IMG/VR virus record: IMGVR_UViG_2617270941_000009
Direction: 5' to 3' (one strand)
DNA: 31,825 bases
Source: a virus
Taxonomy: Duplodnaviria; Heunggongvirae; Uroviricota; Caudoviricetes
The position numbers were made by a program, and so were the translations under genes. Under the pieces are notes generated by a model. That model was not told the origin of the DNA. It did not search any database and worked only from the letters and a program-made list of their open reading frames with translations. Below, piece after piece: positions 1,591-29,092 of this stretch (position 1 is the first letter of the stretch; each line of letters opens with the position of its first letter).

Positions 1591-4500
1591 TATGCAAGCC
1601 TCACAATATAGTTAAATGCGATGTTTTTGACGGTGTTTTCCGCGTTACCCGCAGCGTTAACGGTGATGGTATGTCCATGTGAGCCAATCGCAACGGAGTG
1701 CGTATGAGCACCAATACCGACAGTATGTGCATGTGCGCCTGCGCTTGCAGCAGTGCCGGACAGCGAGTGGGTATGAGCACCATCTGATGATGTCTTCCCT
1801 GCATTACGAGTCTGGCCACTACCGCTTGTTGTGCTCATAATCCCCGCGCTTAGATTTGAAATCGCAGTATAACCATTAGGAAAAATGCTCGTGTTCGTGC
1901 CACCAAATGCACCGGAACTCTTGTGTTGGTGCGCACCGGCACTATTTGCTGTCCCGCTAATACTATGGGTATGTGCACCAGTGTTATTCGTGGATTTAGT
2001 GCCGTAATCAAAAGATGATGTGGTTTTCGTCCCCAAATCCGTACTGGATGCGCTGGCGCTGTGGGTATGCGATTTAATGCCATCCTGTTCCTGAGACAAT
2101 ACGGCACGACCACTGGCGGGCTTGCCCTTAATCGTCCAGCCACGCATATCAGGGATCACGCCTGACGGATAAGCGGCTGCAAGTTTCGGGTATGCAGATT
2201 TGTCAAAAGTCTGCCCCTGCATCAGGGCATAGCCAGACGGAACGGTATCTGATGGCCACGGGATTGGTGCACCGACTGGATAAAACTCTGCAGGAGGATG
2301 AGCCGAGGTGTAAAGCTGCGCCCACGGCGACCAGTTTGCGTCGGTCGTATCCCGTCGTGAACGAATAAATGCCGGAGCATGAGCACCGCTTGTACCACTC
2401 CAGCCGATGAGTAACTCACCTTCGCCAACGGCTGTCATCCCTTTCAGGTGAATGATATTTCCATACGCTGTTGGATATCCGTTGTTATACACCTCGTATA
2501 ACTCAAGACCTGCTGCCCCCTGCGTATTGTCTGTCAGCGCGGTTACCCGACCTTTTGAAGCCAGATTAACTGATGATACTGCTGTTCCACCTGACGGTAA
2601 CGCCCCGATCTCTGATGCCGTTGGCTTATTTCTGGAGTTATAGTCCCTTCGCCAGCCAGGTGAATAATCTGTTCCGTGATTAATATAGGTAAACTGGGCG
2701 TTAGTTGTTCCACCACCAGTGGAGGTGGTCGGTGTGGTAATGCGGATCGTCATCGCTGACTTTATCCCCATTACTTCAATGACAGCTCCGGCGAGATGAA
2801 TATTACCGCAGTCAGTATCAGTAATGATTTTATTATTGCCATAAGACCAGGAACCCTTGCACATCCAGTATGGATGGTTAAATGCTCCCTGAGAATCCAG
2901 CCACTCGATAAACTGTGCAGTCGTCCAGTTTCCTGTTGTTGTGCTTACTGACCCACCGAAGGCACGGCAGGCACCAATATTTTTCGTAAAGGTATCTTTG
3001 CCAGGGATATCCGCACCGTTCTGATCTTTCTGCAGACGTTTCTCAGCATTGTCATTGGCTGCTTTTACTGCCTTTGGTGTCGCGGCAAGCGTTTCAGACG
3101 TGCTGTTGGTCGCGCTGCTTAGCTGGATTATCCCTTTCTGTGCTGTCGTTGCATCCTGTGCGGTGTATTTCCCGTTAGCCAGGTCATACGCGGCCTTAAC
3201 GGCTTTTGGCGTTGCCGCCAGTGACTCGGAAGTGCTGTTGGTCGCACTGCTGAGCTGTACTATCCCCTTTTTCGTCGTGCTCGCATCCTCAAGCGCCACG
3301 GCGGATGCAATATCCTCTGCCCGTTTTGCCGCTGTCTCAGCGCGCGTTGCTGCGGATTCTGCCGTACTTTTGCTCTGTGCTGCCGCTGTCGCACTGCCAG
3401 CAGCCTCTGTCGCCTTTGTGGATGCCGTCGTGGCGCTGCCCTTCGCTGCTGACGCCTGTCTGGTCGCCTCATCTTTTGAAGCAGACGCCGATGATGCCGA
3501 TGACGCCGCCGAACTGGCGGATGATGCGGCAGCCGTTTTTGAGGATTCTGCGCTGGTTTCCGACGCTTTCGCGTTCGTCTCGGATGTCTTCGCTGCGGAA
3601 GCTGACCTCGCTGCTGCGCTGGCCTGTTCAGTGGCTTCGCCAGCCTTCGTTGTGGCTGTTGAAGCAGACGAGGCGGCACTTTCTGCCGACTTTCCGGCAG
3701 CGGTGGCACTGGCTGAGGCCTGCCCGGCACTTGTTGACGCGGCACTGGCAGATGATGCAGCCGCTGTTTTTGAGCCTGCCGCAGCTGAGGCACTCTGTCC
3801 CGCTGCCGTTTCAGAAGACCTGGCGTTCGTCTCGGACGTCTTTGCCGCCTTCGCGGAATTTCCTGCCGCCGTTGCCGAGGAAGCTGCGCTGCTGGCGCTC
3901 GAGGCTGCGCTCGTTTCTGATGATTTCGCTGCCTCTTTTGAGGCCGCCGCATCCCGGGCTGAGGTGGCAGCTTCTGACGCCTTTGTGGTCGCTGCGGATG
4001 CAGAAGTGGCTGCAGATTTTTGTGACGCTGCCGCATTCGTTTCTGACGTTTTCGCGGCACTGGCACTGGTAGCTGCCGCGCTTTTTGAGGACTCTGCAGC
4101 GGCAGCACTTTTTGATGCTTCAGTAGCCTTTGTTGATGCCGTTCCTGCGCTGGAAGACGCTGACTGAGCCGACGTCGCGGCCTGCCCGGCTGATGTGCTG
4201 GCTGCACGTGCTGAGCCTGCAGCATCAGTCGCATGGGTTGCCGCCTCACGGGCTGATGTGCTGGCATCGCTGGCTGACTTCTTCGCGGCTGCTGTGTTCT
4301 GCGCCACTGCGGACGCGTTACGCGCCACCTCTTCCACCATCAGTTCAAAACGGCGCAGTGCCTCAGGACGGGCATCATCCTCCGTCATGGCACCGAGAAA
4401 ATCATTCAGCGTACCGGGTCGGGAATCTTCATACACGGTGATGGTCCCGGCATGTGACGGCGGGAATCCTTCCACCAACAGAATAACGCTGTACTGACCG

Positions 4501-5398: not shown

Positions 5399-6576
5399 TC
5401 AACGAATACTGATGCCGGAAGCAGCCTTTTTGGTCACAATCACCGTACAGTCGGTGATATTACCTGCCCCCTGATTGCCTTTCTGGAAAATCTTAAACTC
5501 CAGAGTGACGCTTCCTCTGCCACTCGGCATATCAATAACCGCACTGTAACTACCGGGAATGGCCCCTTTAGTTTCTCTGGATGCGATTAATACGCCGTTT
5601 TTGCGAACTTCAAAACCATAACCTGTGTATCGCGTGCCTCCGGGGTTATTTCCGCTCCCCGGATCGTCATACGCCACACCGTTAAAAATAATGGGCGGAA
5701 TAATGATTTGACGGTCAAAGTTATGATCATCGCTGATAGTGACTGTAACCGTCCCGTTTGGTGTTTCCGTGTTACCCCACGTACCAGCCTTCTTCGGGAA
5801 TGATTTGGATACTGTTTTAACAAAATCGCCTCTGACCTGATTCGCCTCCAGCATGCCCTTAATCGTACAGTTCTCATTTATCTTGACGTTGTTTAGCGTC
5901 CCGGCGTTCGCATTCACACTGCCACTGATATCCGCATTTTTCGCCGTCAGTCGCCCGTCCGGTGTCAGGGAAAATGCCGGAGGATTACCGCCGCTGGTAA
6001 TGGTAGGAGCCGTCAGGCGTTTCAGGAACACGTCGTTCATGAATATCTGATCGCCCTGCCCAACAAACATCGGCTTTGTGTTGCCATTCGCAGGATTAAT
6101 CATCGCAATCCTGTCTGCCGCCAGCAGCACCTGACTCTGCATGCCGTCAGGGGTGTTCTCAATACCGGCACCAATACCCGCGATATAAAGGCGTCCGTCC
6201 TGCATCTGCTGCAGCTTCACAGCCCACATGCTGTTCAGATTATTATTTGTATCAACCTGAACCTTCTGTATCTGCTGGATCGCTGCACTCTGGTCTTCCA
6301 GTTTCTTATTGACGGTCTGTGTGATTTCATTGCTGACATCCGTAATGGATGTCCTGATTTCAGCCAGGTCAGGCGCAAGCTGACCGTTATCAATCTGCGT
6401 CCACAGCTCCTGAGCCAGATGGGTTTTCCCTATCTCGCCTTTGAAAAAATCCAGATAGCCGGATGCGTCATCACTCGGCTGACCAACAGCCTCCACGAAT
6501 GCCGATTTGCCAACGGTGTTCACACTGCGAACGTAAAAATAATAATTATGGCCCGGCCTGATATTGATACTGGCGG
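5399..6576 (-). pseudogene. J: C-terminal fragment of tail tip protein J (host specificity protein), 5'-truncated by an internal prophage deletion
   Basis: Translation ...[33 protein letters not shown]...[30 protein letters not shown]... resembles the J C-terminal region. The first ~35 residues of the track ORF 5399..6688 are read through the nu1/cos region and are not J. Confidence 0.8.
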
Positions 6577-6623
6577 CTACTCGCACCGAAAATGTCAGCC
6601 AGCTGCTTTTTGTTGACTTCCAT
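6577..6623 (-). pseudogene. nu1: remnant of terminase small subunit nu1 (first ~15 codons, [15 protein letters not shown]) fused at a deletion junction to the J fragment
   Basis: Minus strand from the ATG at 6623 reads ATGGAAGTCAACAAAAAGCAGCTGGCTGACATTTTCGGTGCGAGT, the lambda nu1 start, then diverges into J-frame sequence. Confidence 0.65.
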
Positions 6624-6800
6624 TGTTCATTCCACGGCCAAAAACAGAGAAAGGAAACGACAAAGGCCCAAAAGTTCGTTTTCAGCACCTGTCGTTTCCT
6701 TTCTTTTTAGGGGGTATTTTAAATAGAAACATTAAGTTACGACGAAGAAGAACGGAAACGCCTTAAACCGGAAAATTTTCATAAATAGCGAAAACCCGCG

Positions 6801-6812
6801 AGGTCGCCGCCC
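6801..6812. other. cos: cosN cohesive-end site (12-nt GGGCGGCGACCT, seen as reverse complement), flanked by cosB and cosQ-like sequence
   Basis: aggtcgccgccc at 6801..6812 with flanking ...CGCGGGTTTTCGCTATTTATGAAAATTTTCCGGTTTAAGGCGTTTCCG on the minus strand matches the remembered lambda left end. Confidence 0.8.
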
Positions 6813-10632: not shown

Positions 10633-11715
10633 ATGAAAAAATTAACAGTGGCAATTTCTGCTGTAGCTGCATCAGTACTGATGGCGATGTCTGCTCAGGC
10701 AGCTGAAATTTATAATAAAGACAGTAACAAGCTGGATCTGTACGGGAAAGTTAATGCTAAGCACTACTTCTCCTCTAATGATGCAGATGATGGTGATACT
10801 ACTTATGCCCGTCTTGGCTTCAAAGGTGAAACCCAAATCAACGATCAACTGACTGGTTTCGGTCAGTGGGAATATGAATTCAAAGGCAACCGCGCTGAAT
10901 CTCAAGGTTCCTCCAAAGATAAAACCCGTCTTGCCTTCGCTGGCCTGAAATTCGGTGACTACGGCTCAATCGATTACGGCCGTAACTACGGTGTAGCATA
11001 CGACATCGGTGCGTGGACTGACGTTCTGCCAGAATTCGGTGGCGATACCTGGACCCAAACAGATGTATTCATGACTGGTCGCACCACAGGTGTTGCAACT
11101 TATCGTAACAACGACTTCTTTGGTCTGGTTGATGGCCTGAACTTTGCAGCTCAGTATCAGGGCAAAAATGACCGAAATGAAGTAACTGAAGCTAATGGCG
11201 ATGGTTTCGGTTTCTCAACTACTTATGAGTATGAAGGATTCGGCGTGGGTGCAACCTATGCTAAATCTGATCGCACTAATAATCAGGTTATCTACGGTAA
11301 CAACGGTCTGAATGCTTCTGGTCAAAATGCTGAAGTATGGGCAGCTGGTCTGAAATATGATGCGAACAACATCTATCTGGCCACCACCTATTCTGAAACC
11401 CAGAACATGACTGTTTTTGGTAATAACCATATTGCCAACAAAGCACAAAACTTCGAAGCTGTTGCACAATATCAGTTCGACTTCGGCCTGCGTCCATCCG
11501 TTGCTTACCTGCATTCTAAAGGAAAAGACTTGGGTGTTTGGGGTGATCAGGACCTGGTTGAATATGTTGATGTAGGTGCAACCTATTACTTCAACAAAAA
11601 TATGTCCACTTTTGTTGACTACAAAATCAACCTGATTGATAAGAGCGATTTCACGAAAGCATCTGGCGTTGCTACCGATGATATCGTTGCTGTAGGTATG
11701 GTTTACCAGTTCTAA
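10633..11715 (+). CDS. nmpC: outer membrane porin of the OmpC/OmpF family (NmpC / phage Lc-type), apparently intact
   Basis: 360-aa translation with signal peptide [30 protein letters not shown]..., beta-barrel porin motifs and C-terminal ...VAVGMVYQF. Located between Q and the lysis genes on the opposite strand, as in DLP12. Confidence 0.9.
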
Positions 11716-11903: not shown

Positions 11904-12287
11904 TTAATTAGAGTTATTAACAACGATATCCATCTCTAACCGGATATCTAATGCCATTAACATCCCTTCAATTATGCCCTCAGCCTTTTGTAACCTTTTC
12001 CCGATATAACCATCAGAGCAGCAATGCTTACCTGCCAGTGACATGAATGTCATACCGACTACATAATAATCTACTAATAAATCGTGCAAATCGCTGTTGT
12101 TCTTTTTCAGACGGGCCATGCACCCGCAAATAATCATCGCGTCATCGTCACAACATTGCGGGCGAGATTTTACTTTTGAAGTAATTAATCCCTTAAAACC
12201 GGCGGCAATGGACGACCAGGTCACATCTTCATGATTATTAGCCGCCCACGCTCCCCAACGCTCAAGAACCATCTGAATATCACGCAT
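11904..12287 (-). CDS. quuD: late gene antiterminator Q (DLP12 QuuD / phage 82-type)
   Basis: Translation from the ATG at 12287 ([21 protein letters not shown]...[18 protein letters not shown]...) matches remembered QuuD, with GGAG RBS upstream. The track ORF starts 5 codons earlier. Confidence 0.8.
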
Positions 12288-12369
12288 CAACTTACTCCAC
12301 AAAAATCAGACCAGAACGCCAATTACAAGCAAAAATCAACAAAACAGTATTAGTTGATTGTTATCTCTG

Positions 12370-13198: not shown

Positions 13199-13322
13199 CC
13201 AGGCTAGCGGTATATCCGAGCAGTGTTGGTATTTCGGATGGCTTCAGCTCAGGTTTACGCTTACGACGATTTGGTACTTTGTAGATGTGTCCGTTCATGA
13301 CACGAATAAGCGGTGTAGCCAT
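13152..13322 (-). CDS. ninE: NinE protein
   Basis: Translation from the internal ATG at 13322 ([56 protein letters not shown]) matches NinE; start overlaps the ninB stop. Confidence 0.7.
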   Translation of the reverse strand: MATPLIRVMNGHIYKVPNRRKRKPELKPSEIPTLLGYTASLVDKKWLRLAARRNHG

Positions 13323-13777
13323 TACGCCTCCTGCTTGTCGCGCAGCAGCTGAAACTCGCAGCTCTGTGGAATAGTCAGGTGGCAACCAATATTCATCGCC
13401 CAGGCTTCAACCTTACACAGGAAGACATACATCTCTCCGGTATCAAGATCGGAGGTATGGCGTAACGACTGGATAGTGGTGATATCACCGGTTACGACAT
13501 CAACCAGGTCTTTGGTTTCATAACCGAGATATGTGTGTTTGAGAGCATCTTTTACCCAAGCTGGAGTGGCGAACGTTTTACCCTTGCTGATGAGGTATTC
13601 ACTGATTTCGCTGTACCACATGTGGCTGAGTGCATTCTGGGAAAGACTGCGTCTCTCGCGCCACGGTTTAAGCACCATGCGAAAGCATTTGCCGTCCTCC
13701 AGATAAGGCTGGATCTGCCGACCAATAGCGGTGAAGTTACCGCGATGCAGTTTGATGCCATCTTGTGGGAAGTTCAC
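13322..13777 (-). CDS. ybcN: NinB/Orf-family recombination protein (DLP12 YbcN-like)
   Basis: 151-aa translation [21 protein letters not shown]...; GTG start with GGAGGTG RBS; NinB-family motif [12 protein letters not shown]. Confidence 0.75.
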
Positions 13778-13872
13778 GCTTCACCTCCGCAGAGATCAAA
13801 CGCTGGATGCAAAAAAACGCAGGTGCATTTCTGCATCTGTGGCAAGGCGAGGAGTTCAACTTGTGGTCGCAT
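13774..13872 (-). CDS. small ORF (32 aa) translationally coupled to ninB, YlcH-like; overlaps a conserved duplicated element
   Basis: Untracked [35 protein letters not shown]; TGA overlaps the ninB GTG (GTGA). Coding status uncertain. Confidence 0.35.
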
Positions 13873-13947
13873 ATAATTTCCCAATCATATGCGCAGAAGT
13901 CACCGCAGGGTGTTCAGGCCAACGGTGACGGTATTATTGCTTATTGA

Positions 13948-14199
13948 TTATGATTTTTCAATTTCATCAATAACCTTGTGATAGACAATACCAGAAAGGC
14001 CAACAGACAGTGGATGTTCATGAAATATTGGCTCATTTGCATAAACCCAATGCCCGACAAATTCTTCTGGGCTTGATATGTATAACTCACGAAGAAAATG
14101 GAGATCCCTCTCTACAACTAATTTCGTATCGTCCAAGAGCGCTGCATTTACGCTAGTTTTATGGCTGTGCATTAATTTACATTTGGTGAAGGACATCAT
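13948..14199 (-). CDS. hypothetical protein (83 aa)
   Basis: ORF with strong AAGGAG RBS 8 nt upstream of ATGATG; no family recognised. Confidence 0.45.
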   Translation of the reverse strand: MMSFTKCKLMHSHKTSVNAALLDDTKLVVERDLHFLRELYISSPEEFVGHWVYANEPIFHEHPLSVGLSGIVYHKVIDEIEKS

Positions 14200-14258
14200 G
14201 GCAAAAGCTCCTTTTTCTTATGAATCCATATGTTAGCTAAATTGGAGAGACACAGTAG

Positions 14259-14873
14259 CTAACGTTGTTTAATAACATTCTGACGCAAATGTGGCAATAC
14301 TCGACTCCACTTATCATCCTGCCACGGCTGGAATTTTACATGTGCCGTTTCTCTGGCGAGGATTGCTCGCGCTCTGGTGAGTATCTGGGGATATTCTTGC
14401 TCGATGGAAGTGAAGCGACCAGCTTCACGATGCTCCGCAACCTGAAGAAGAGGAGTAACGTTCTGGCAGGCGGTTAACATCGCATCCCCAGCTCGCCATA
14501 ACCAAGCAAGTGTGCAAAGTTCGTTATCAGTGAATTGTTTTGTGATCGGGGATTGTTGAACTTCTCGATCGAGAATATCCAGAACCCAGCGGCGGAACTC
14601 TTTGGCTACAGGAGTTCGTGCAAACATGGCGATCAAATGGGCTCCGCGAAGGCTAAATACTCGAGACTCCTGCATTCCACGAGGGGTGGTCACTTTGACC
14701 ACCCTTGTCATCATATCTGTAAATTCATCTGAGTGACGAGAGTAAATGCGCTGAACTGCTTTATCGTCCGCATATTCCAGAGCTAAACCAACTTCAGTGG
14801 CAGTAAGCCAAATTCTGTTATTGTGGCAAATTGGGGTAAACGTCGTTTTGTGGAATGCTAATTGAGTAGTCAT
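14259..14873 (-). CDS. BRO-N domain protein (phage antirepressor-like)
   Basis: 204-aa ORF with GAGGTG RBS; N-terminal region (FTPICHNNRIWLTATEVGLALEY...RWVLDILD) resembles the Bro-N/antirepressor domain. Family call from memory. Confidence 0.55.
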   Translation of the reverse strand: MTTQLAFHKTTFTPICHNNRIWLTATEVGLALEYADDKAVQRIYSRHSDEFTDMMTRVVKVTTPRGMQESRVFSLRGAHLIAMFARTPVAKEFRRWVLDILDREVQQSPITKQFTDNELCTLAWLWRAGDAMLTACQNVTPLLQVAEHREAGRFTSIEQEYPQILTRARAILARETAHVKFQPWQDDKWSRVLPHLRQNVIKQR

Positions 14874-15195
14874 AGTTTCACCTCATCAGGTTAACCATCA
14901 CCACCAACGACGCCAATCGACTGGTGGTGAACTGTGCAAGGTTGGCGTAACCGGCTACTCAAATCCGGCGCTCCCGAAGAAGCCCTCACACAGCCCACCA
15001 TAATTTGGGCGTAGCCGTGCTTAGCGCATAAAAAAACCGCTTAACGCGGTATGCGTTGAGTAGTATTCCGGGACGCCAATCCCGTGTGCCGATTTTGCGG
15101 CAACGCACAGAATATATCCCCAGATAAATCATGTCGTCAACCCCAGTAAATGGACACCATGATGATCACAGCCATAGCTGCTACAACAGTTACAA

Positions 15196-15357
15196 CTACC
15201 TCAGGCCAAAACATAACGATTTCCATATCACCTTTAGCCGCCAGACGAATAGAGACTCCCAATTCTGGCTGTCGAAGTAAAACACCGAATGTAAAAAATC
15301 GTAGGTGCATTTCTGCATCTGTGAATGGAGAAGATAGGTTGGATTGTATGTGCGCAT
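15196..15357 (-). CDS. second YlcH-like small ORF (53 aa), paralogous to 13774..13872; alternative to track ORF 15137..15385
   Basis: ORF MRTYNPTYLLHSQMQKCTYDFLHSVF... shares the QMQKCT core and conserved 5' leader with the ylcH-like ORF upstream of ninB. Coding status uncertain. Confidence 0.3.
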   Translation of the reverse strand: MRTYNPTYLLHSQMQKCTYDFLHSVFYFDSQNWESLFVWRLKVIWKSLCFGLR

Positions 15358-15484
15358 AAACGTCCCCGTTTAGCGCAGAAGTCACCGGAGTTGTTCAGGC
15401 TCCGGCTTATTAATATTGCCTACTTACAATTAATTTTTCAACTGTTAGAAACTTATAATTAGCTGTCTCTTTGTAACTATCAAT

Positions 15485-17380
15485 TTAATTATTTTTCTTT
15501 AACTTGAAATTTCTTCCCATTGCTAGTGTTCTTCGAAGATTCGAATCATAAGCTGGTTGATAACATCTATCATAAAAATCCTTAATTGTCTGATGGTAAG
15601 TATCCAGCATCAAACCATAAAACCCCCTGACCTTAAGATAATCCACCAAGGGAAATAAATAATCATCAGTCTGAACATCAGTATCAATATTATTTTTTTG
15701 TTTTTTAACTTCAAATTTGTATAAGTTTAACTCACCCTTATCCATCGTGCATGAAAAAAGGTCGTCAAAAATCAAATCAATTTTTGTCATAGGAACTCGT
15801 TCTTTTCCAGACATTATAGGTAGAATATCAATACCTAAGAGCGAACCTAATACAAAGTCGTAATGAAGCGAAATCACTGAGTCATTCGATGTCGAGTTGC
15901 CTTTGATAAATACTCTACTTAGTGCCGAGTCAAAAACATTCTCAACTCTCTCTCTCGTCATGTTTGCGACATCTACAACCCCCATATCACGAGAAGCTTT
16001 TATTGTGATTTCATCTATAAATGCTTTGGAATCTAGTGAATGTAAAAACAACATGAAGTTATCTAACTGTTCAGAGCATTTAATAGCCACCATAAGATTT
16101 TCGTATATATCTTTTTTATACTCAATCGGTAAATTTGCTACCGCAAAAGCAGCATAAAATTCTTGCACTGATTTATGCAGAAAAACATACCTATTATTTC
16201 CCTCAGGTTGGATAAGGCAAGTTATCTCAATAAGATCATCTATAAAGTTTGATGCATCTTCTTTAAGATAACCTTCTGTTTCAATAGCATCTTCAGCATA
16301 TCTAAGCAACTCTTCTCCCCAAAACTCAAATTTCTCCTCAATCAGTGCGTTATAGCAAATAGCTGAAAAACACAATTTAGCTTTTTCACCAATAATGTTT
16401 GATTTTTTCTCGCGCGTATATACTTTTATTTTATCATGCCTTGCATATAAGGTGTCAAAGAGGCTTCGATAAAACTCTATTATATTATTTGGAATATCAT
16501 TCATATAAGGATAACAATAATACAAAAGAGTAACTAAAATTGGATTGCAAATAGTTCCCTCAAGTTCTTCTTTATCACATAGTAAATCCGCCAAGACTTT
16601 AAACGAGGCATCACTACTTGAGAATCTGTCATTTTTCGATAAAGAATGAAGAATACAAATCTTATCAGAAATATTTAGCTTATCTATAAAAATATTATAC
16701 ACATCAGTAGTATAACATATATCTGTATTTGGTCTCGTTGTTGCGATAATTGGTGTGTTAAAATGATAATGAATGTTTTTTATTTCATTCATCATCATAG
16801 TTCGCTCTTCATGTTTAACCTCATCAAATCCATCCAACATTAAAACGACTCTTTGGGATTGCAGTAATATTTTCAAGCTATCCTCTGAACACCCCACACC
16901 AAATGAATTAAGAATGTCTGCCAGATAAGCAATAATATTTGCATTCTTCACCCTTCTTAATTCAATAAAAAAAGGCATCCGTTCTGATTTTTTTATTTCC
17001 TCGCTAAACAACTTGCGTAAAATAGTACTTTTCCCTTGCCCCGCTATACCGACTATATTTACAATACCATGAAATGGTAAAGTGACCCCATCTTTTATAA
17101 CGACCTTGTCTTTATTAGATGCCACCTCAACAGTTAACGGATAATAAATATCATCTAAAAAAATATCATAATCAGCGTTGTGCAAAGTTCTCATTTTCAG
17201 AGATGGTAGCACATGCTTTCTTAAATAATTTTCTCTTCCGAGGGGATCATTTAATTGTTCGAGTATAACCTTGCCTTCATCTAGGTCCCTAGCCCAAGGT
17301 TTAGAGAGCAATACTTCTGTTATTTTTTCCGCAGCTTTTCCTACTGTGCTATTAATAATAGTCGCAAGAAACTCATCCAT
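15485..17380 (-). CDS. NACHT/STAND-type P-loop NTPase, candidate single-gene anti-phage defence protein
   Basis: Walker A GIAGQGKST; Walker B VVLMLDGFDEV (NACHT-type DGxDE); sensor-1-like IIATTRP; NPILVTLL motif. The track start at 17437 is a TTG; the ATG at 17380 (MDEFLATIINS..., RBS GGTGAAAAA) is preferred, with the ATG at 17416 as an alternative. Markedly AT-rich by eye. Confidence 0.75.
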   Translation of the reverse strand: MDEFLATIINSTVGKAAEKITEVLLSKPWARDLDEGKVILEQLNDPLGRENYLRKHVLPSLKMRTLHNADYDIFLDDIYYPLTVEVASNKDKVVIKDGVTLPFHGIVNIVGIAGQGKSTILRKLFSEEIKKSERMPFFIELRRVKNANIIAYLADILNSFGVGCSEDSLKILLQSQRVVLMLDGFDEVKHEERTMMMNEIKNIHYHFNTPIIATTRPNTDICYTTDVYNIFIDKLNISDKICILHSLSKNDRFSSSDASFKVLADLLCDKEELEGTICNPILVTLLYYCYPYMNDIPNNIIEFYRSLFDTLYARHDKIKVYTREKKSNIIGEKAKLCFSAICYNALIEEKFEFWGEELLRYAEDAIETEGYLKEDASNFIDDLIEITCLIQPEGNNRYVFLHKSVQEFYAAFAVANLPIEYKKDIYENLMVAIKCSEQLDNFMLFLHSLDSKAFIDEITIKASRDMGVVDVANMTRERVENVFDSALSRVFIKGNSTSNDSVISLHYDFVLGSLLGIDILPIMSGKERVPMTKIDLIFDDLFSCTMDKGELNLYKFEVKKQKNNIDTDVQTDDYLFPLVDYLKVRGFYGLMLDTYHQTIKDFYDRCYQPAYDSNLRRTLAMGRNFKLKKNN

Positions 17381-17768
17381 TTTTTCACCACATTCATTAA
17401 CCAATACGTGGTGCATTCTTACAAGACTCAGTAACAATTGTCAATCATAGGTTTTCGCATGATTGCAAAACGCCATAAACAATTGTAGCACCATAATTTT
17501 AAACACTATATAATATACAACCTTCCTACAAGCATTCAGTACATCGCTTAATCACAGGGCTTGAATATATAGTAAGGAATCGATATTAATCACCTCATCT
17601 ACTTTAAACATCTTACACACCTATAATTTATAATAGTCAACACGAGGTCATCATATTAAACATGCAATTACAAACATTCATTTTTATATAAATTTTCATG
17701 ATTTAACCGTAGAGCGACGGTAATAAATTTCATATACAAGGATTTAAGCTCCCATACGTTTTCTATTA

Positions 17769-17948
17769 TTAAAAATAACATACCGTTCGCCAGACCTTAC
17801 CATCAATGACCAGGATTCCTGCCCGCGCCATTTTTGCCGCAGCCTGATTTATGCTGGTTAATGTCACACCTGTTGTCGCAGCAACGTCCGGCGCACAGAA
17901 GCTCTTGTGCGTCCCCAGGTAATGAATAATTGCTTCTTTTCCCGTCAT
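17769..17948 (-). pseudogene. ren: truncated ren (N-terminal 59 codons of lambda Ren, overlapping the P stop), interrupted by the foreign AT-rich cassette
   Basis: Untracked ORF MTGKEAIIHYLGTHKSFCAPDVAATTGVTLTSINQAAAKMARAGILVIDGKVWRTVCYF*; matches the lambda Ren N-terminus then ends prematurely. ATG overlaps the P TGA (ATGA), as in lambda. Confidence 0.7.
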
Positions 17949-18646
17949 ACACTGGCTCCTTTCAGTCCGAACTTAGCTTTGATTTCTGCAATCTTCGCCA
18001 GAGCCTGTGCACGATTTAGAGGTCTACCGCCCATGACAGGAAGTTGTTTTACTGGTTCAGGTATAGCCTCACCACGGTTAATTCTCGCAGTCATATGGGC
18101 AAGTTCATCGGCAGCCTTGCGCCGTAATTCCGAGTCAGTCAACGCATTAGCCCGCATGTTCTGATACAGGTTGGTAACCAGCCAGTAGTGCGCGTTTGAT
18201 TTCCACGGATAAGACTCTGCGTCCGGATACAGGCCACGCTTCCGGCAATACTCGTAAACCATATCAACCAGCTCGCTGGCGTTTGGCAGTCCGGCGGTAA
18301 CGGATGCTTCTTCCCGGCACCATGCAACAAACTGCCCGGGTGATGGCAGAAATGGTCGATTCTGCCGACGGGCTACGCGCATTCCTGCGTTAACCTGTTC
18401 CATCGTGGTGATCCCGTTTTCCCGAAAAGCCAGAACCCACTGGCGACGGATTTCGTTCACTTCGTTCTGGTCACGGTTAGCCAGGCTCGCCGGGAAAGTT
18501 GCCAGTAACTGGCTGAACACACCGTTGATGATCTGCGCTACCTGCTGTACCTGCGGCTTTTCGTCGTACTGTTCCGGCATGTTGTTGGCGATCCGACGCA
18601 TCTGCTCACGGTCAAAGTTAACCATCTGTGCGGCGATGTTTTTCAT
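17945..18646 (-). CDS. P: replication protein P (DnaB helicase loader)
   Basis: 233-aa translation near-identical to remembered lambda P (MKNIAAQMVNFDREQMRRIANNMPEQYDEKPQVQQ...). Confidence 0.95.
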   Translation of the reverse strand: MKNIAAQMVNFDREQMRRIANNMPEQYDEKPQVQQVAQIINGVFSQLLATFPASLANRDQNEVNEIRRQWVLAFRENGITTMEQVNAGMRVARRQNRPFLPSPGQFVAWCREEASVTAGLPNASELVDMVYEYCRKRGLYPDAESYPWKSNAHYWLVTNLYQNMRANALTDSELRRKAADELAHMTARINRGEAIPEPVKQLPVMGGRPLNRAQALAKIAEIKAKFGLKGASV

Positions 18647-19542
18647 AGATCCACCCCGTAAATCCAGTCTGTGTTTGTCAGGTCGAGTTTTGGTTTGCTG
18701 GCTGTCACGCCTGCCTGTTGCTTGTTACGGTTGATTTCGAGTTGGGTCCACTTATCGCGGAGTTTGGCCGGGCTCAGCACGTTACCGGACCAGAAGTTGT
18801 CCTGGCATGCCCAGCGGAACAGCACGCACATGTCGCGGTGGTTACGTCCGTCACGTTCACGCATCAGGCGGATATCGTTAGCCCACCCAGCAAAATTCGG
18901 TTTTCTGGCTGATGGTGCGATAGTCTTCACCATGTCAAACATCCACTCTGCGGCGGTCAGGTCTTCTGCTGTCCCCCACTTGCTGCCGCTCTGAATTGCA
19001 GCATCCGGTTTCACCACAGAAAGGTCGTTTTCTGGCTGGTCAGAGGATTCGCCAGAATTCTCTGACGAATAATCTTTTCTTTTTTCTTTTGTAATAGTGT
19101 CTTTTGTGTCCCCCTGTTTTGAGGGATAGCAATCCCCCAATTTGAGGGATGTTTTATCCCTCGTTTTAGGGGATTTTCCCTCGTTTTGAGGGATGCACCA
19201 TTCTGAGATGTTTTTATTTGGTCCAAACATGCCGCCTTGCTGCTTGATAATATTCATTCTGACGAGTTCTAACTTGGCTTCATTGCACCGTTTGACGGGT
19301 AACTTTGTAATCTCGCTAAGTTGAGAATCGGTGATTCTGTCCATTGGTTTATTCCACCCATAGGTTTTACGCAGAATGGCAAGCAGCACTTTAAACTGTC
19401 GCTTGGTCAGATCTGCGCCCGAATAAGCCTCAAGCAGCATATTTGATAGTCTGGCGTAACCATCATCGAGATCTGCCACATTACGCTCCTGTCCGGCAAA
19501 GTTACCTCTGCCGAAGTTGAGTATTTTTGCTGTATTTGTCAT
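18643..19542 (-). CDS. O: replication initiator protein O
   Basis: 299-aa translation near-identical to remembered lambda O (MTNTAKILNFGRGNFAGQERNVADLDDGYARLSNMLLEAY...). Confidence 0.95.
   Translation of the reverse strand: MTNTAKILNFGRGNFAGQERNVADLDDGYARLSNMLLEAYSGADLTKRQFKVLLAILRKTYGWNKPMDRITDSQLSEITKLPVKRCNEAKLELVRMNIIKQQGGMFGPNKNISEWCIPQNEGKSPKTRDKTSLKLGDCYPSKQGDTKDTITKEKRKDYSSENSGESSDQPENDLSVVKPDAAIQSGSKWGTAEDLTAAEWMFDMVKTIAPSARKPNFAGWANDIRLMRERDGRNHRDMCVLFRWACQDNFWSGNVLSPAKLRDKWTQLEINRNKQQAGVTASKPKLDLTNTDWIYGVDL
19110..19196. other. ori: ori-lambda: four iterons (TCCCTCAAAACGAGGGA-type repeats) inside the O gene, with adjacent AT-rich region
   Basis: Repeats ccctgttttgaggga / atcccccaatttgaggga / atccctcgttttagggga / tccctcgttttgaggga seen; AT-rich block at ~19060..19105. 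Confidence 0.85.
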
Positions 19543-19552
19543 AATGACTCCT

Positions 19553-19629
19553 GTTGATAGATCCAGTAATGACCTCAGAACTCCATCTGGATTTGTTCAG
19601 AACGCTCGGTTGCCGCCGGGCGTTTTTTA
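19553..19629 (+). ncRNA. oop: oop antisense RNA (overlaps the 3' end of cII), with intrinsic terminator to (CCGCCGGGCG + T-run)
   Basis: Sequence GTTGATAGATCCAGTAATGACCTCAGAACTCCATCTGGATTTGTTCAGAACGCTCGGTTGCCGCCGGGCGTTTTTTATT matches the remembered lambda oop RNA. Confidence 0.75.
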
Positions 19630-19868
19630 TTGGTGAGAATCGCAGCAACTTGTCGCGCCAATCGAGCCATGTCGTCGTCAACGACCCCCCATTCAAGAAC
19701 AGCAAGCAGCATTGAGAACTTTGGAATCCAGTCCCTCTTCCACCTGCTGATCTGCGACTTATCAACGCCCACAGCTTCCGCTGTCTTCTCAGTTCCAAGC
19801 ATTGCGATTTTGTTAAGCAACGCACTCTCGATTCGTAGAGCCTCGTTGCGTTTGTTTGCACGAACCAT
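19575..19868 (-). CDS. cII: transcriptional activator CII
   Basis: Translation from the ATG at 19868 (MVRANKRNEALRIESALLNKIAMLGTEKTAEAVGVDKSQISRWKRDWIPKF...) is identical to remembered lambda CII; the track ORF extends 20 codons upstream. Confidence 0.95.
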   Translation of the reverse strand: MVRANKRNEALRIESALLNKIAMLGTEKTAEAVGVDKSQISRWKRDWIPKFSMLLAVLEWGVVDDDMARLARQVAAILTNKKRPAATERSEQIQMEF

Positions 19869-19947
19869 ATGTAAGTATTTCCTTAGATAACAATTGATTG
19901 AATGTATGCAAATAAATGCATACACCATAGGTGTGGTTTAATTTGAT

Positions 19948-19980
19948 GCCCTTTTTCAGGGCTGGGATGTGTAAGAGCGG
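19948..19980 (-). promoter_or_regulatory. nutR: nutR (boxB hairpin GCCCTGAAAAAGGGC at 19948..19962 and boxA CGCTCTTACA at ~19970..19979, minus strand)
   Basis: Minus strand reads CGCTCTTACACATCCCAGCCCTGAAAAAGGGCATCAAATTAAACC, matching remembered lambda nutR. Confidence 0.8.
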
Positions 19981-19987
19981 GAATGTC

Positions 19988-21343
<1,356 letters not shown>

Positions 21344-21696: not shown

Positions 21697-22020
21697 ATGG
21701 ATGCACAAACACGCCGCCGCGAACGTCGCGCAGAGAAACAGGCTCAATGGAAAGCAGCAAATCCCCTGTTGGTTGGGGTAAGCGCAAAACCAGTTAACCG
21801 CCCTATTCTCTCGCTGAATCGCAAACCGAAATCACGAGTAGAAAGCGCACTGAATCCGATAGACCTTACGGTGCTGGCTGAATACCACGAACAGATTGAA
21901 AGCAACCTGCAACGTATTGAGCGCAAGAATCATCGAGTTTGGTATAGCAAGCCAAGTGAGTTCGGTATAACTTGTCAAGGAAGACAAAAGGTTAAAGGGA
22001 AATCCATTCCATTGGCATGA
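21697..22020 (+). CDS. N: antiterminator protein N
   Basis: Translation from the ATG at 21697 (MDAQTRRRERRAEKQAQWKAANPLLVGVSAKPVNRPILSLNRKPKSRVESALNPIDLTVLAEYH...) matches lambda N; the track ORF starts upstream. Confidence 0.9.
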   Translation: MDAQTRRRERRAEKQAQWKAANPLLVGVSAKPVNRPILSLNRKPKSRVESALNPIDLTVLAEYHEQIESNLQRIERKNHRVWYSKPSEFGITCQGRQKVKGKSIPLA

Positions 22021-22028
22021 GGTACGTA

Positions 22029-22898
22029 ATGAAGAAAATTGATTACAAGTCCATACCAAAACCAATAGACTCAGCATCAGAGCGAAAAAAACACAAAAAA
22101 GAGGCTGAAAAATTAGCAAATTATATCAGTTTTATTAGAAACAATGCTCACGGCGATGGCGACAGGAAGTTGCTTTCAGATGCCCGGACCCAAGCGTTCA
22201 GTATACTTCGTAAGCAGATGCAATATCGTCTTCATCCAGGCTACATAATTGAAATTCGCCCGACTGAAAGACAATTGTTCTTATTAAACTCTGTCTTTGA
22301 CTTTGTAAACGTAGTTGGAGATCTTATCGACAGGTCTGTAGATAAGGCTCCTGATACAAATAGTTTTCTTCTAACAAATAAAGAATACTTATATGGTAAA
22401 TTTGGTATAAACGGATGGCAAAAATATGTACGATTCTTACGTGCATTCGTTGATGCGTATAAAAATTCCGACATGATTTATACATATTTGCCTGGTGGTG
22501 ATAATTGTACGCTTTCGGCAGACAATAGAATATTCATACCTATACTTGGTCTTGGGCTGATTAATGCAGTAAATGAAAGAGATGTTATAATTGTTAAGCA
22601 GTGGCGAAAGCATGAGGGATATAGATATCTGCCATGCTTTGATATATTAAAAATACAGAATAAATTCTATGTAAAAATTAAATATAAAGAAGATGTTTTC
22701 TTCCTCAGAAAAAACAAAGATCTTTTACAAGAACTTTCTGGGACAATAGATGTCATCGTAGGTTCTAGGTTTATAAAAGAACTGAAAGAAAGCAGGTCTT
22801 TCTCTCGTGTAGAGATAAGCGAGTCAGAGTTATGGGGTATATCAAATAATCCTGTAAACCACGCTCACCAACGAAATCCAAACAAAAAGTGGTCATAA
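22029..22898 (+). CDS. hypothetical protein (289 aa), AT-rich orphan gene at the ral/sieB hotspot; candidate superinfection-exclusion or abortive-infection factor
   Basis: ORF immediately after N (the track ATG at 22017 overlaps the N stop; the ATG at 22029 with GAGG RBS is preferred). Strongly AT-rich by eye; no catalytic motif recognised; followed by an intrinsic terminator. Confidence 0.55.
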   Translation: MKKIDYKSIPKPIDSASERKKHKKEAEKLANYISFIRNNAHGDGDRKLLSDARTQAFSILRKQMQYRLHPGYIIEIRPTERQLFLLNSVFDFVNVVGDLIDRSVDKAPDTNSFLLTNKEYLYGKFGINGWQKYVRFLRAFVDAYKNSDMIYTYLPGGDNCTLSADNRIFIPILGLGLINAVNERDVIIVKQWRKHEGYRYLPCFDILKIQNKFYVKIKYKEDVFFLRKNKDLLQELSGTIDVIVGSRFIKELKESRSFSRVEISESELWGISNNPVNHAHQRNPNKKWS

Positions 22899-22922
22899 CC
22901 CGCTCAGGCGGGTTTCATTTTC
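22899..22922 (+). terminator. intrinsic terminator after the orphan gene (CCCGC-TCAG-GCGGG + TTTCATTTT)
   Basis: Hairpin and T-rich tract seen in sequence. Confidence 0.5.
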
Positions 22923-23040
22923 ACGCAAACAACAGAATAAACACTGCACTGTGTATTCATTCCAACGAGTGAATACACGGAGCAATGTCGCTCGTAACTA
23001 AACAGGAGTCGACTTGTTCTGATTATTGGAAATCTTCTTT

Positions 23041-26598: not shown

Positions 26599-26897
26599 GC
26601 GAAATTAACTCTCAGGCACTGCGTGAAGCGGCAGAGCAGGCAATGCATGACGACTGGGGATTTGACGCAGACCTTTTCCATGAATTGGTAACACCATCGA
26701 TTGTGCTGGAACTGCTGGATGAGCGGGAAAGAAACCAGCAATACATCAAACGCCGCGACCAGGAGAACGAGGAAATTGCGCTAACGGTAGGAAAGCTGCG
26801 CGTTGAGCTGGAAGCAGCAAAATCAAAACTCAACGAGCAGAGTGAATATTACGAAGGTGTTATCTCGAATGGAAGTAAGCGTATTGCTGAACTGTAG
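26595..26897 (+). pseudogene. ea22: ea22, truncated (N-terminal ~100 aa only); marks the left boundary of a foreign b-region replacement
   Basis: Translation MSEINSQALREAAEQAMHDDWGFDADLFHELVTPSIVLELLDERERNQQYIKRRDQENE... matches the lambda Ea22 N-terminus but stops after ...SNGSKRIAEL; lambda Ea22 is ~182 aa. Confidence 0.65.
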
Positions 26898-27147
26898 GCC
26901 TAGGTTGAATGTACAAGATTTGCATACGTAAGAGCAAAAGACAAGGGAGAATTGATCAGAGTTATTACCTGCCAACCAACGGGATATTACGCTTACGTAC
27001 CATGTAACTAGGAATCCTTGAAGTGGCAGCCTAACTGTGGATACACTGAAATGGCGATTTGGTAACATGTTTCGCACAAAGCTGTTACTATGCTTAGAGA
27101 TAATCAGTCATGATTAAATGCTTTGTAAAAAGTAAAAGGAAATTACA

Positions 27148-27762
27148 ATGAAAAAATCAACACTAATTTTAGGGCTTACGTTAATTGTCTCATCTCAAAT
27201 ACCTTCGGCAATGGCAAAAAATGAATCAAAACTTTGGGTTGTTGTTGATCGAACGGAAAGACATACCTGCCCTTCAAGTAAATGTGGAGTGGCTGGGAAA
27301 CTATTTTTCAGGGAAGGCGTAGATTTTCTAGAAAAAAAAGGTGAATGGGTTCGTATAACTGGGCCATATTCAGCCTCATGTGTGGGAGGGGAAAGCGAAT
27401 ATATTAAAGAAGGTAATAAATCCTGCACAAGAAAAAACGGAATCGTTAATGGCAAGTTTTCAGAATGGGTTAAACTTAGTGATCTTAGCAGTGAAAGGCC
27501 ATCAGATCCTGCTGAAAATGCGAGCAGAAATGATACCTTAATCAAAGGATCTGATGACTACCGTATATACAAAAAAGAGTTTTCTTCGGCAGCTAGGAAG
27601 TTAATAAGTGAAGGTGTCTGCACGGAGAGCGATTTTAAGGAAATTGGAGGGTGGATGGCATCAAGCAATAAGGGTGAAAACATCTATTTCACATATTGCG
27701 GAGGAATGACGTTGTCGAACAGAATATATCTAGACGTTAAAAGTGGAAAGACTTTTAGATAA
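27148..27762 (+). CDS. hypothetical secreted protein (204 aa, signal peptide), AT-rich cargo gene
   Basis: N-terminus MKKSTLILGLTLIVSSQIPSAMA is signal-peptide-like; several Cys; no family recognised. Confidence 0.5.
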   Translation: MKKSTLILGLTLIVSSQIPSAMAKNESKLWVVVDRTERHTCPSSKCGVAGKLFFREGVDFLEKKGEWVRITGPYSASCVGGESEYIKEGNKSCTRKNGIVNGKFSEWVKLSDLSSERPSDPAENASRNDTLIKGSDDYRIYKKEFSSAARKLISEGVCTESDFKEIGGWMASSNKGENIYFTYCGGMTLSNRIYLDVKSGKTFR

Positions 27763-28421
27763 TATGATATTACTAATGACAGCATTAATTTAATGCCTCC
27801 ATAGAATTATCTCTAGGAAGTAAGTATAAGAAAAGTCCGCACAATGAGCTGCTGCGGGCTTTGTGTTATTCGCCATATTTTATGAAGCAAATACGACACT
27901 ATAGATAATTAAGCGTTACTGGTTGTCGATTCCTCACTCATTCCTGCTGATGGCTGTCTTCTTGTATGTGCCATTGAAGGGTAATATCGCGTAAAAAGAT
28001 ACCGGAAGTATCCGCGCCGCCATGATTGTCTTTCTCCTGATGCAGGAAAAGCAGAATGACTAAACCAGCAGCAGAGCGCAAAGCCGATCAGAGAGCCAAG
28101 CAAGCATCATCCGGTATGCGTAAGCTGGAGCTTGTACTTGATGCTCGGAAATTGAAATGCTGGAGCGTAACTGAGCCACGCGCCGCTTCAGGCGTGCGCC
28201 TTACGAGTTTGGTGAGTACATAGCGTTACTGAGCCGCCAGGATGATGCACGTGTGCGCTGGCGTATAAAATCGATTAGCAGAAAACGTTGCCGTAAGTGC
28301 GGCGAGAGAGTTCCTGTTAATTCATGCCCGTGTAATGGTGACTCACAATACTGGGTGACCAAAGGCTGGCACGAAACAAAATTAATGATATAAATCTCTG
28401 TGACATGTCACGGAGGCGGCA

Positions 28422-28850
28422 ATGAAATTAGACCAGCAATATCTAAAAGATCTACTTATCGCATTCGAAAAAACTTATGGCCCTGACACGATGCTTAGTG
28501 AACTAGAGGATAATGGCTTTAATAGATATGACCAAAATTTTATTTTCCATATGCGATTATTATGTGACTACGAATTAATAGTTAGGGTTGATGGAAAACC
28601 TGGGTTCGGTCATATAATGTCCAACGAGTTAGGGGAAGGTGTTGAATATAGTTGGATCGAAGTACCACTGAGGTTGACAGCAAGAGGGCATGATTTTATT
28701 GCTGACTTACGTCAAAAGGAGGTCTGGCAAGCTATAAAAACAAACTTTAAGGATGAGGGAATTAGTACTCTTATGAGTGTTTCAAAATCACTAGCAAAAG
28801 GCTTTGCAAGGAAAAAAATAAAAGATATTACAGGAATAGATATTGAATAA
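28422..28850 (+). CDS. hypothetical protein (142 aa), AT-rich cargo gene
   Basis: ORF with plausible RBS (GGAGG upstream); no family recognised with confidence. Confidence 0.5.
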   Translation: MKLDQQYLKDLLIAFEKTYGPDTMLSELEDNGFNRYDQNFIFHMRLLCDYELIVRVDGKPGFGHIMSNELGEGVEYSWIEVPLRLTARGHDFIADLRQKEVWQAIKTNFKDEGISTLMSVSKSLAKGFARKKIKDITGIDIE

Positions 28851-29092
28851 TTCTTAGCATCAAGCAACTACTGCCTTTGGTGAAAATTATATCTGAACTC
28901 GCTACGGCGAGTTTTGTTTTACGGAGATGATAAATGCACTTCAGAGTCACTGGTGAATGGAATGGAGAACCATTCAACAGAGTTATCTAAGCAGAGAACA
29001 TCAATGACTGCTATGACAACTGGATGATATGGGCGCAGATAGCACATGCAGACATAACCAATATTCGAATTGAAGAACTGAAAGAACACCAA

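Follow-up and report, generated by a model that had tools for sequence, protein, structure and literature searches.

A NACHT gene cassette joined to a truncated ren gene in a defective lambdoid prophage

We describe the locus downstream of the replication gene P in the IMG/VR virus record IMGVR_UViG_2617270941_000009, a 31,825-nucleotide (nt) stretch of DNA (the window) assigned to the Caudoviricetes. It represents a defective lambdoid prophage, the early-right operon of which lies on the minus strand. Directly 3' of P lies an open reading frame (ORF) homologous to the 5' part of lambda ren, the ATG of which overlaps the P TGA as ATGA, the same arrangement as in lambda. This ORF, here called ren', encodes a product of 59 amino acids (aa): MTGKEAIIHYLGTHKSFCAPDVAATTGVTLTSINQAAAKMARAGILVIDGKVWRTVCYF. 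It is followed on the same strand by an AT-rich leader, a gene for a NACHT-domain nucleoside triphosphatase (NTPase), an antirepressor-like module and ybcN, the first gene of a conserved DLP12-type nin block (ybcN-ninE-ybcO-rusA-ylcG-Q). The coordinates of these features are collected in Table 1.

Full-length Ren proteins are ~95-100 aa long with a conserved C-terminal half (YYRFATREEREGK..IFKECRQSA); the ren' ORF ends at 59 aa, and its match to phrog_142 ("Ren-like exclusion protein", 8e-21) covers residues 1-58 only. The 3' half of ren was found nowhere else in the window, either by tblastn (word size 2; best E = 1.1) or by blastn-short, which returned only 10-15-nt chance matches (best E = 0.31). 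With a 59-aa ORF and no C-terminal half in the window, ren' is therefore a ren pseudogene and not a ren gene. The Prokaryotic Genome Annotation Pipeline (PGAP) treats the same sequence in NZ_CP027140 in this way, as "protein ren, incomplete, missing C-terminus" (partial pseudogene). PADLOC and NCBIfam contain no match for ren'.

The point of truncation was located by blastn comparison with lambda (NC_001416), in which ren occupies positions 40280-40570 (NP_040633, 96 aa). Window positions 19981..17776 align with lambda 38247..40452 at 98.0% identity over 2,206 nt. This block spans the rut/nutR region downstream of cro, cII, O (every residue the same as in lambda O), P and the 5' portion of ren. 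So long a match at 98% identity (2.2 kb), with so abrupt an end, cannot be due to chance. Unbroken identity ends at ...GGCGAACGGT (lambda 40447, window 17781), in ren codon 56. The next five positions match partly, and beyond lambda 40452 (window 17776, codon 58) nothing more can be aligned. At the protein level, lambda Ren is matched at 50 of the first 57 ren' residues; neither Cys57 nor Phe59 nor the stop codon resembles lambda, and the match at Tyr58 may be due to chance. Judged from these alignments, the break lies within codons 56-58 of 96. At the same place GC content falls, from 0.499 in 17776-19981 to 0.296 in 17438-17775.

A preliminary description made from the window's letters had proposed that ren is cut short where an NTPase-containing insertion begins, at about 17770..17790, and had suggested an alignment to the lambda P-ren region as a check. 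That alignment, with the break at 17776-17781, bears out both the estimate and the view that the truncation point is an edge of the foreign segment, here the upstream edge of the NACHT cassette. It also speaks against a full-length ren homologue of a different type, as does the missing 3' half. AT-rich sequence does follow the stop codon, as described. The count of 59 Ren residues before the stop needs adjusting: about 56-57 codons derive from ren, and the final two or three codons and the stop are foreign. The junction carries a 9-10-nt imperfect inverted repeat that folds no better than shuffled sequences (z = -1.3). No mobility gene was identified in the cassette, and terminal direct or inverted repeats are limited to short AT-rich chance repeats.

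The left edge of the NACHT cassette was set at the end of the lambda alignment, and its right edge at 15404/15405, from where the sequence is again homologous to more than 40 other lambdoid loci. Its main gene scores 43.9 bits with Pfam NACHT PF05729 (cut-off 26.7). Walker A (GIAGQGKST, G111-T119), of the form GxxGxGK[ST], and Walker B (LDGFDE; D183/G184/D186/E187) are invariant in 58 homologues, and LDGFDE fits D[GAS]hDE, the motif that defines NACHT (Kibby et al., bioRxiv 10.1101/2022.07.19.500537). The protein is a true NACHT NTPase. Its AlphaFold2 model (predicted local distance difference test [pLDDT] score 88.9) was matched by Foldseek to NLRC4 (4kxf; E = 4.8e-12, TM 0.50 over 468 columns), NOD2 (E ~5e-12) and NLRP3, and the predicted fold is a nucleotide-binding domain (NBD)-helical-winged-helix arrangement like that of animal NOD-like receptors (NLRs). 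The model adds an N-terminal helical bundle of ~60 aa and a C-terminal mixed alpha/beta region of ~200 aa. No match for the protein was found in NCBIfam.

Translation of the NACHT gene likely starts at the ATG at 17380, which is also the choice of PGAP. The TTG start at 17437 given by an ORF finder is unlikely because it falls inside a promoter-like site at 17415..17444. This site has a consensus score of 10/12, tied for best with three others in 13700-18000, and is the only one of the four with an extended -10 TG. No terminator-like site is predicted on the minus strand of the leader between ren' and the NACHT gene (17381..17768).

The downstream edge of the cassette is formed by a boundary element of ~115 bp. 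This element is the leader and 5' end of ylcH of the K-12 prophage DLP12: the peptide MRTYNP..QMQKCT of copy 1 matches K-12 ylcH. In more than 40 other lambdoid loci a ylcH-type element lies directly upstream of ybcN, and copy 1 is 91-95% identical in most of the other loci carrying the element (lower in a few). In the window a second, more diverged copy stands just before ybcN, with the Bro-N/P22AR_C antirepressor-like gene between the copies. That gene is absent from one locus that otherwise has the order ren'-NACHT-element-ybcN (L013), other loci have the Bro-N module without NACHT, and the gene occurs with other neighbours in L012, L053, L056 and L057. The NACHT and Bro-N modules, since they occur separately, are therefore two independent cassettes split by a repeated anchor sequence, not the single foreign cassette of the preliminary description. 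PADLOC and NCBIfam have no match for the Bro-N protein. The ylcH-type element was also considered as a terminator, which is not convincing (fold z ~ -2.1; the T-run is itself paired in the hairpin). An ORF of 82 aa (15137-15385, minus strand), hydrophobic towards its C-terminus, starts inside copy 1 in a frame other than that of ylcH; a peptide in this frame is kept in both copies of the element, and either frame may be the coding one.

An identical ren'-NACHT junction is present in nine of 5,426 complete Escherichia coli genomes (99.0-99.9% identity), where PGAP annotates a ren partial pseudogene next to a "NACHT domain-containing protein", and in seven IMG/VR contigs. Among the complete E. 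coli genomes listed there is no case of the NACHT gene without ren'. What surrounds the junction varies. Upstream, similarity to the window ends at 18560 in P, at 19109 in O or at 19567, depending on the copy, and strain AR_0369 has another repressor/cro pair and a 5'-truncated P. Downstream, the copies differ in the presence of the Bro-N module, in other cargo or in an IS3-family insertion. The same junction with varied flanks is the pattern expected of one origin followed by transfer through homologous recombination in shared flanks. In one copy (L010, IMGVR_UViG_2925914267_000006) the NACHT gene is split into ORFs of 582 and 76 aa, and an IS3-family transposase pair is inserted just before ybcN.

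Three further contigs from one sequencing study (L092-L094, the L092 lineage) carry the whole colinear block at 81% identity to the window. The two sequences can be aligned across the junction, which is therefore older than their split. Divergence is uneven along the block (Table 1): the 17381-17444 stretch is 87.5% conserved, versus 60% for the rest of the leader, and ren' has drifted almost as non-coding DNA. The GKVWRT motif (G50-T55), every residue of which is invariant or at least 90% conserved in the aligned Ren proteins, is also gone from the ren' of this lineage. The NACHT gene, by contrast, is under purifying selection (nonsynonymous to synonymous ratio [dN/dS] 0.11), and its promoter is conserved. 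Elsewhere, one copy (L011) has a nonsense codon at ren' codon 54, and L013 and L014 carry another ren' allele.

Table 1. Features around the ren' junction, with their identity to the L092 lineage
Feature	Position in window	Strand	Description	Identity, window vs L092 lineage
Replication gene P, 233 aa	17945..18646	-	230/233 residues the same as in lambda P; inside 98% blastn block; stop overlaps ren start as ATGA	94% (P 3' end)
ren', 59-codon remnant	17769..17948	-	Codons 1 to ~56-57 ren-homologous; last 2-3 codons and stop foreign	69%; 1-nt deletion leading to stop at codon 29
Recombination junction	17776..17781	.	From base-by-base alignments; GC drop 0.50 to 0.30	
Whole NACHT cassette, ~2.37 kb of foreign DNA	15405..17775	-	GC 0.323 vs 0.50 in flanks	
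AT-rich non-coding leader	17381..17768	-	GC 0.296	60%
Sigma-70-like promoter, consensus match	17415..17444	-	TTGACA, 18-nt spacer, TG-n-AAGAAT; 34 nt upstream of NACHT ATG	
Promoter and 5' untranslated region				87.5%
NACHT-domain NTPase gene, 631 aa	15485..17380	-	Start MDEFLAT; PGAP coding sequence of 1,896 nt; Pfam NACHT	85% (coding sequence); dN 0.076, dS 0.69, ratio 0.11
Downstream of NACHT				84%
Boundary element copy 1	15289..15404	-	Leader and 5' end of ylcH-type small ORF, ~115 bp	
Bro-N and P22AR_C antirepressor-like gene, 204 aa	14259..14873	-	Pfam P22AR_C 5.6e-16, Bro-N 4.6e-10	
83-aa ORF, hypothetical protein (PGAP)	13948..14199	-	phrog_9613 1.2e-41; travels with Bro-N module	
Boundary element copy 2	13798..13919	-	74% identical to copy 1; repeat family D1; just before ybcN	
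ylcH-like 32-aa ORF	13774-13872		In boundary element copy 2 region	
ybcN (NinB/Orf family)	13322..13777	-	NCBIfam PRK09741 7e-83; phrog_72 NinB/Orf; PGAP names	

The explanation that we favour, to which we assign a probability of roughly 0.82, is that ren' is a non-functional, decaying pseudogene remnant of one old recombination event, and that the cassette so placed sits in an accessory slot and was later moved between prophages. The sequences themselves show the junction and the limits of the cassette, descent from one event, passage into different prophages, decay of ren' beside a conserved NACHT gene, and the variety of the slot. A single illegitimate-recombination event would have joined ren codon ~56-57 to the ~2.4-kb AT-rich NACHT cassette. 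The cassette fills a slot for accessory genes that lies, in lambdoid phages, between the replication genes O, P and ren and the nin/Q block; downstream it ends at the conserved ylcH-type element before ybcN. The P-ren'...ylcH/ybcN block has since moved between prophages, by homologous recombination in flanking sequences that are common to lambdoid phages, and cassettes may be exchanged through the P-ren and ylcH-ybcN anchors. The same recombination would keep overwriting ren' with alleles of intact ren genes; the fresh appearance of ren' in the E. coli copies probably reflects such repeated overwriting. As for function, the NACHT gene may be expressed from its own promoter in the lysogen, with N-antiterminated read-through from pR added after induction, and its product could be an NLR-like anti-phage sensor that oligomerises on a phage cue.

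The event may also have run in the other direction: an ancestor with an intact ren, intervening DNA and the NACHT gene could have lost ren codons 58-96 together with the DNA between. Cargo in other phages normally lies downstream of a full-length ren ORF, NACHT homologues in L087 and L090 stand several genes downstream of P, and deletions in this region are well tolerated, for example nin5 (the ren::ninI fusions in L025 and DE3). We nevertheless consider a deletion doubtful, as no locus with both an intact ren and the NACHT gene was found in the 5,426 E. coli genomes, the 80 IMG/VR loci or the contigs carrying homologues; it differs from the favoured explanation only in the direction of the event. 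Far less probable still is that ren codon 56-57 is a preferred, site-specific target for mobile cassettes. This idea draws on a second discontinuity only 2 nt upstream, after lambda 40445, in a class of short ren forms (class A; 57 aa, ending GKVWRTFV*), and on the homology of phrog_1687, which likewise ends at residue 58/59. The class A break leads into the 3' part of ren, diverged and with a stop, and not into a cassette. At the NACHT junction itself only one cargo is seen, the cassette has neither a recombinase nor a transposase gene and shows no terminal repeats of significance, and the junction is shared by descent even in the 81%-identity lineage. An assembly artefact or a chance ORF is refuted by the recurrence of the truncation in nine independent complete genomes (99.0-99.9%), seven IMG/VR contigs and the three divergent contigs.

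A further possibility concerns the fate of the 59-aa product, which might be a functional, stand-alone winged-helix "mini-Ren" or a MarR-like regulator, the break having fallen at a domain boundary. Some of what speaks for it also weighs against the favoured explanation. The ren' ORF is intact in most E. coli copies, and the overlap with the P stop would allow translational coupling. It retains everything that AlphaFold2 models confidently in Ren, a three-helix helix-turn-helix of residues 1-45 (pLDDT 82-87). The top Foldseek matches, all weak, are winged-helix domains of 56-67 aa; the phrog_1687 "MarR" proteins share only Ren residues 1-58/59, and a similar 57-aa form is common and carries the NCBI name "MarR family transcriptional regulator". 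None of the Foldseek matches is significant (best E-value 0.15); with weak fold matches and a model confident for residues 1-45 only, the domain-boundary idea therefore stays a suggestion. In the 81%-identity lineage, moreover, the ORF is frameshifted with a stop at codon 29 and without GKVWRT, whereas the NACHT gene there is under purifying selection; the L011 copy has its nonsense codon at 54, the final residues and stop of ren' come from unrelated DNA, and PGAP treats ren' as a pseudogene. On balance we think a retained function improbable.

Other points on the same side of the scale as the intact ORF are that decayed ren' is seen in one lineage only (three contigs, one study), that the event may have been an insertion or replacement or else a deletion, and that no ancestor or donor of the junction was found. 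For the NACHT gene, no Pfam domain outside the NTPase, including any recognisable effector domain, was detected; no PADLOC-DB v2.0.0 model matches the protein at E <= 0.01; no paper in the literature searched mentions its accession, WP_024239936; no convincing intrinsic terminator was found downstream of the gene; and the promoter at 17415..17444 is a consensus match only. The anti-phage role, which the preliminary description likewise called putative, is one that we reasonably infer from family membership, prophage-slot neighbours and purifying selection.

The slot was surveyed in 79 loci: the window and 78 related loci (L002-L006 and IMG/VR loci that still have ninB or ybcN). From the ren ATG to the ninB or ybcN ATG the interval measures 364 bp (lambda) to 5,442 bp, with 33 length classes and 48 protein clusters. 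PADLOC hidden Markov models identify PD-Lambda-1 (1.5e-198; L052, L057, L062 and L018 classes), a DUF4041-T5orf172 protein validated by Vassallo et al. (PMC9519451), as well as BstA (3.8e-121; L085, positions 3106-4050 from the ren ATG), a candidate PDC-S59 (1.5e-72) and a weak HEC-07-like protein. In four loci PD-Lambda-1 adjoins a 515-aa HD-domain protein, the latter without a PADLOC match. Further cargo includes DUF4145 and HEPN proteins, a VasI/"TagO"-like lipoprotein and the DLP12 set of emrE, a serine recombinase, ybcL and ybcM. The interval thus has what is looked for in a hotspot, conserved flanks with many alternative cargoes and known defence systems among them. The NACHT cassette itself resembles a moron, being present or absent among similar phages (it is absent from lambda and the other 70 of the 79 surveyed loci) and deviant in GC content (0.32 vs 0.50). 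Other lambdoid prophages of enterobacteria have NACHT homologues of 62-66% identity in this position too, downstream of the replication genes and ahead of RusA/YlcG/Q. In Enterobacter cloacae (L090/L091, GCA_054936555.1) a defence-like run downstream of O-P (an integrase fragment, an FRG-domain protein, a Ser/Thr kinase and, on the opposite strand, a KAP NTPase) ends in a 62%-identity NACHT homologue.

The breakpoint within ren is another matter. In the surveyed loci other cargo follows a full-length ren ORF in nearly all cases, or else a separately decayed one. The upstream mosaic boundary usually falls at ren codons ~88-92, and the C-terminal tails beyond it are of at least seven different kinds. 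Of the complete E. coli genomes, 2,888 have ren, with at least 80% of its length covered in 2,527. Joined at codon 56-57 there is only the NACHT cassette: different cargo at the same breakpoint, which the preliminary description had proposed as a search, was not found in the 79 loci. Its "hot-swappable" locus is therefore apt for the ren-to-nin interval, which is highly variable and holds defence genes (PD-Lambda-1, BstA), and not for the NACHT breakpoint. It is the slot that can be swapped; the break inside ren happened once and was then inherited. The 57-aa class A ren (phrog_7054) was examined as a second truncation and rejected, since alignment shows it to be a diverged, stop-containing full-length ren pseudogene; the switch to this version comes after lambda 40445, 2 nt from the NACHT junction. 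It occurs in L004/L005 and 24 further loci, and PGAP calls it "frameshifted; internal stop". The near-coincidence of the class A and NACHT breaks may simply reflect where the highly conserved stretch coding for GKVWRT stops.

The preliminary description had also linked Ren to exclusion and read the replacement of ren by a putative defence gene in that light. This does not follow. Ren is said, in 1980 work attributed to Toothman and Herskowitz, to let lambda escape Rex exclusion, not to exclude other phages. The window has no rexA/rexB homology by blastn against lambda, and its non-lambda cI/cro pair (19988-20942) is one that we take to be the phage 434 repressor and Cro. Because the prophage is without rex genes, loss of ren is more likely to have been neutral than a like-for-like swap; an imm434 prophage would tolerate it, having no Rex system to escape.

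Whether the interval from P/ren to ylcH-ybcN (or ninB) is a general, uncatalogued defence hotspot of lambdoid prophages across the Enterobacteriaceae, with cargo exchanged by homologous recombination via the P-ren 5' region and the ~115-bp ylcH element, we consider evenly balanced; the 80-locus sample was picked by similarity to ren'. If it is, uncharacterised residents of the slot could be new anti-phage systems: the NACHT family, the 515-aa HD-domain protein, the DUF4145/HEPN-like pairs and the ORFs without a match. The literature searched has no paper on this NACHT family, nor one that treats the ren-nin interval as a hotspot of defence genes.

That this region is mosaic is textbook knowledge, as is the cargo of DLP12, and a ren pseudogene and a NACHT gene are already annotated in RefSeq; the junction is an ordinary mosaic one. 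Relative to the lambda pR operon (cro-cII-O-P-ren-tR2), the window is alike in the position of ren, the ATGA overlap and the first ~56-57 codons. It differs in being without the C-terminal 39 Ren residues, the ren-ninB intergenic region and the lambda-type nin genes, in place of which it has foreign DNA and a DLP12-type nin block. K-12 DLP12, with the order P'-ren(::IS3)-emrE-ylcJ-ybcK-ybcL-ybcM-ylcH-ybcN-ninE-ybcO-rusA-ylcG-quuD, uses the same slot and the same downstream anchor of ylcH/ybcN and nin/Q, and has a broken ren with accessory cargo between ren and ylcH. In DLP12, however, ren is split by IS3, whereas in the window it is fused to the cargo, and the cargo is emrE, a recombinase, ybcL and ybcM as opposed to NACHT and Bro-N/P22AR_C. 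Another phage-tolerated breakpoint inside ren is that of the lambda nin5 deletion (ren::ninI), although this is a laboratory deletion that joins ren codon ~73-77 to ninI and brings in no foreign cargo. L025 and phage DE3 (EU078592), in which ren continues in frame into ninI after residue ~73-77, represent vector-derived lambda sequences in public collections.

Like the bNACHT proteins (Kibby et al., bioRxiv 10.1101/2022.07.19.500537), the window protein has a NACHT module with a D[GAS]hDE Walker B and an NLRC4/NOD2-like predicted fold, and one gene of a mobile element suffices to encode it. With a C-terminal region that is short and free of repeats, and without an enzymatic effector, it is reminiscent of clade 14 of that work. 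It matches no PADLOC model and so is not placed with a named, tested bNACHT. The slot resembles the defence hotspots of P2 and P4 (Rousset et al. 2022, PMC9122126; Vassallo et al. 2022, PMC9519451) in having conserved flanks and variable cargo that includes validated defence genes. It differs in belonging to lambdoid phages, which the P2/P4 papers mention only in passing, in its anchors (P/ren and ylcH-ybcN or ninB) and in its mixed cargo, where an efflux pump, a lipoprotein and an antirepressor-like gene accompany defence genes.

The truncated ren is useful as a precise landmark: it fixes one edge of the NACHT cassette, and comparison across it shows the cassette to be old, to have been relocated through recombination and to be kept by purifying selection. 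Attention is drawn as well to the interval from ren to nin as a slot in which validated defence genes (PD-Lambda-1, BstA) lie beside many uncharacterised ones. Should the slot prove enriched in defence genes, searches anchored on P/ren and ylcH-ybcN/ninB could bring out new immune genes from thousands of E. coli prophages at little cost; the P2 and P4 hotspots have already been mined by such anchoring.

Several other parts of the prophage depart from lambda. The interval from lambda 240 to ~17822 (nu1 through most of J, with the head and tail genes) is missing, and a 3' fragment of J adjoins the cos/nu1 5' end (window 6574-6812 and flanks). A YbhC-like gene stands beside the prophage, as would fit integration at the lambda attachment site; the flanking ORF had been a candidate for bioA, which was ruled out because Pfam identifies a pectinesterase-family, YbhC-like protein. 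A 158-aa ORF (20867-21343) without a family match overlaps the end of cI. At 22010-22927, non-lambda DNA takes the place of the lambda ral/orf28/sieB interval (lambda 34064-35047) and contains a 293-aa ORF (22017-22898) with no Pfam or PADLOC match; a known superinfection-exclusion locus is here a second slot that has been swapped. Between the exo/bet region and xis/int, a non-lambda block (26894-28886) holds a 204-aa ORF (27148-27762; no match) and a DUF2513 ORF (28422-28850). A full-length OmpC/NmpC-type porin gene (10633-11715, plus strand; Pfam Porin_1 3.6e-152) is located between the Q antiterminator gene (11904-12302) and the lysis genes, as in DLP12.

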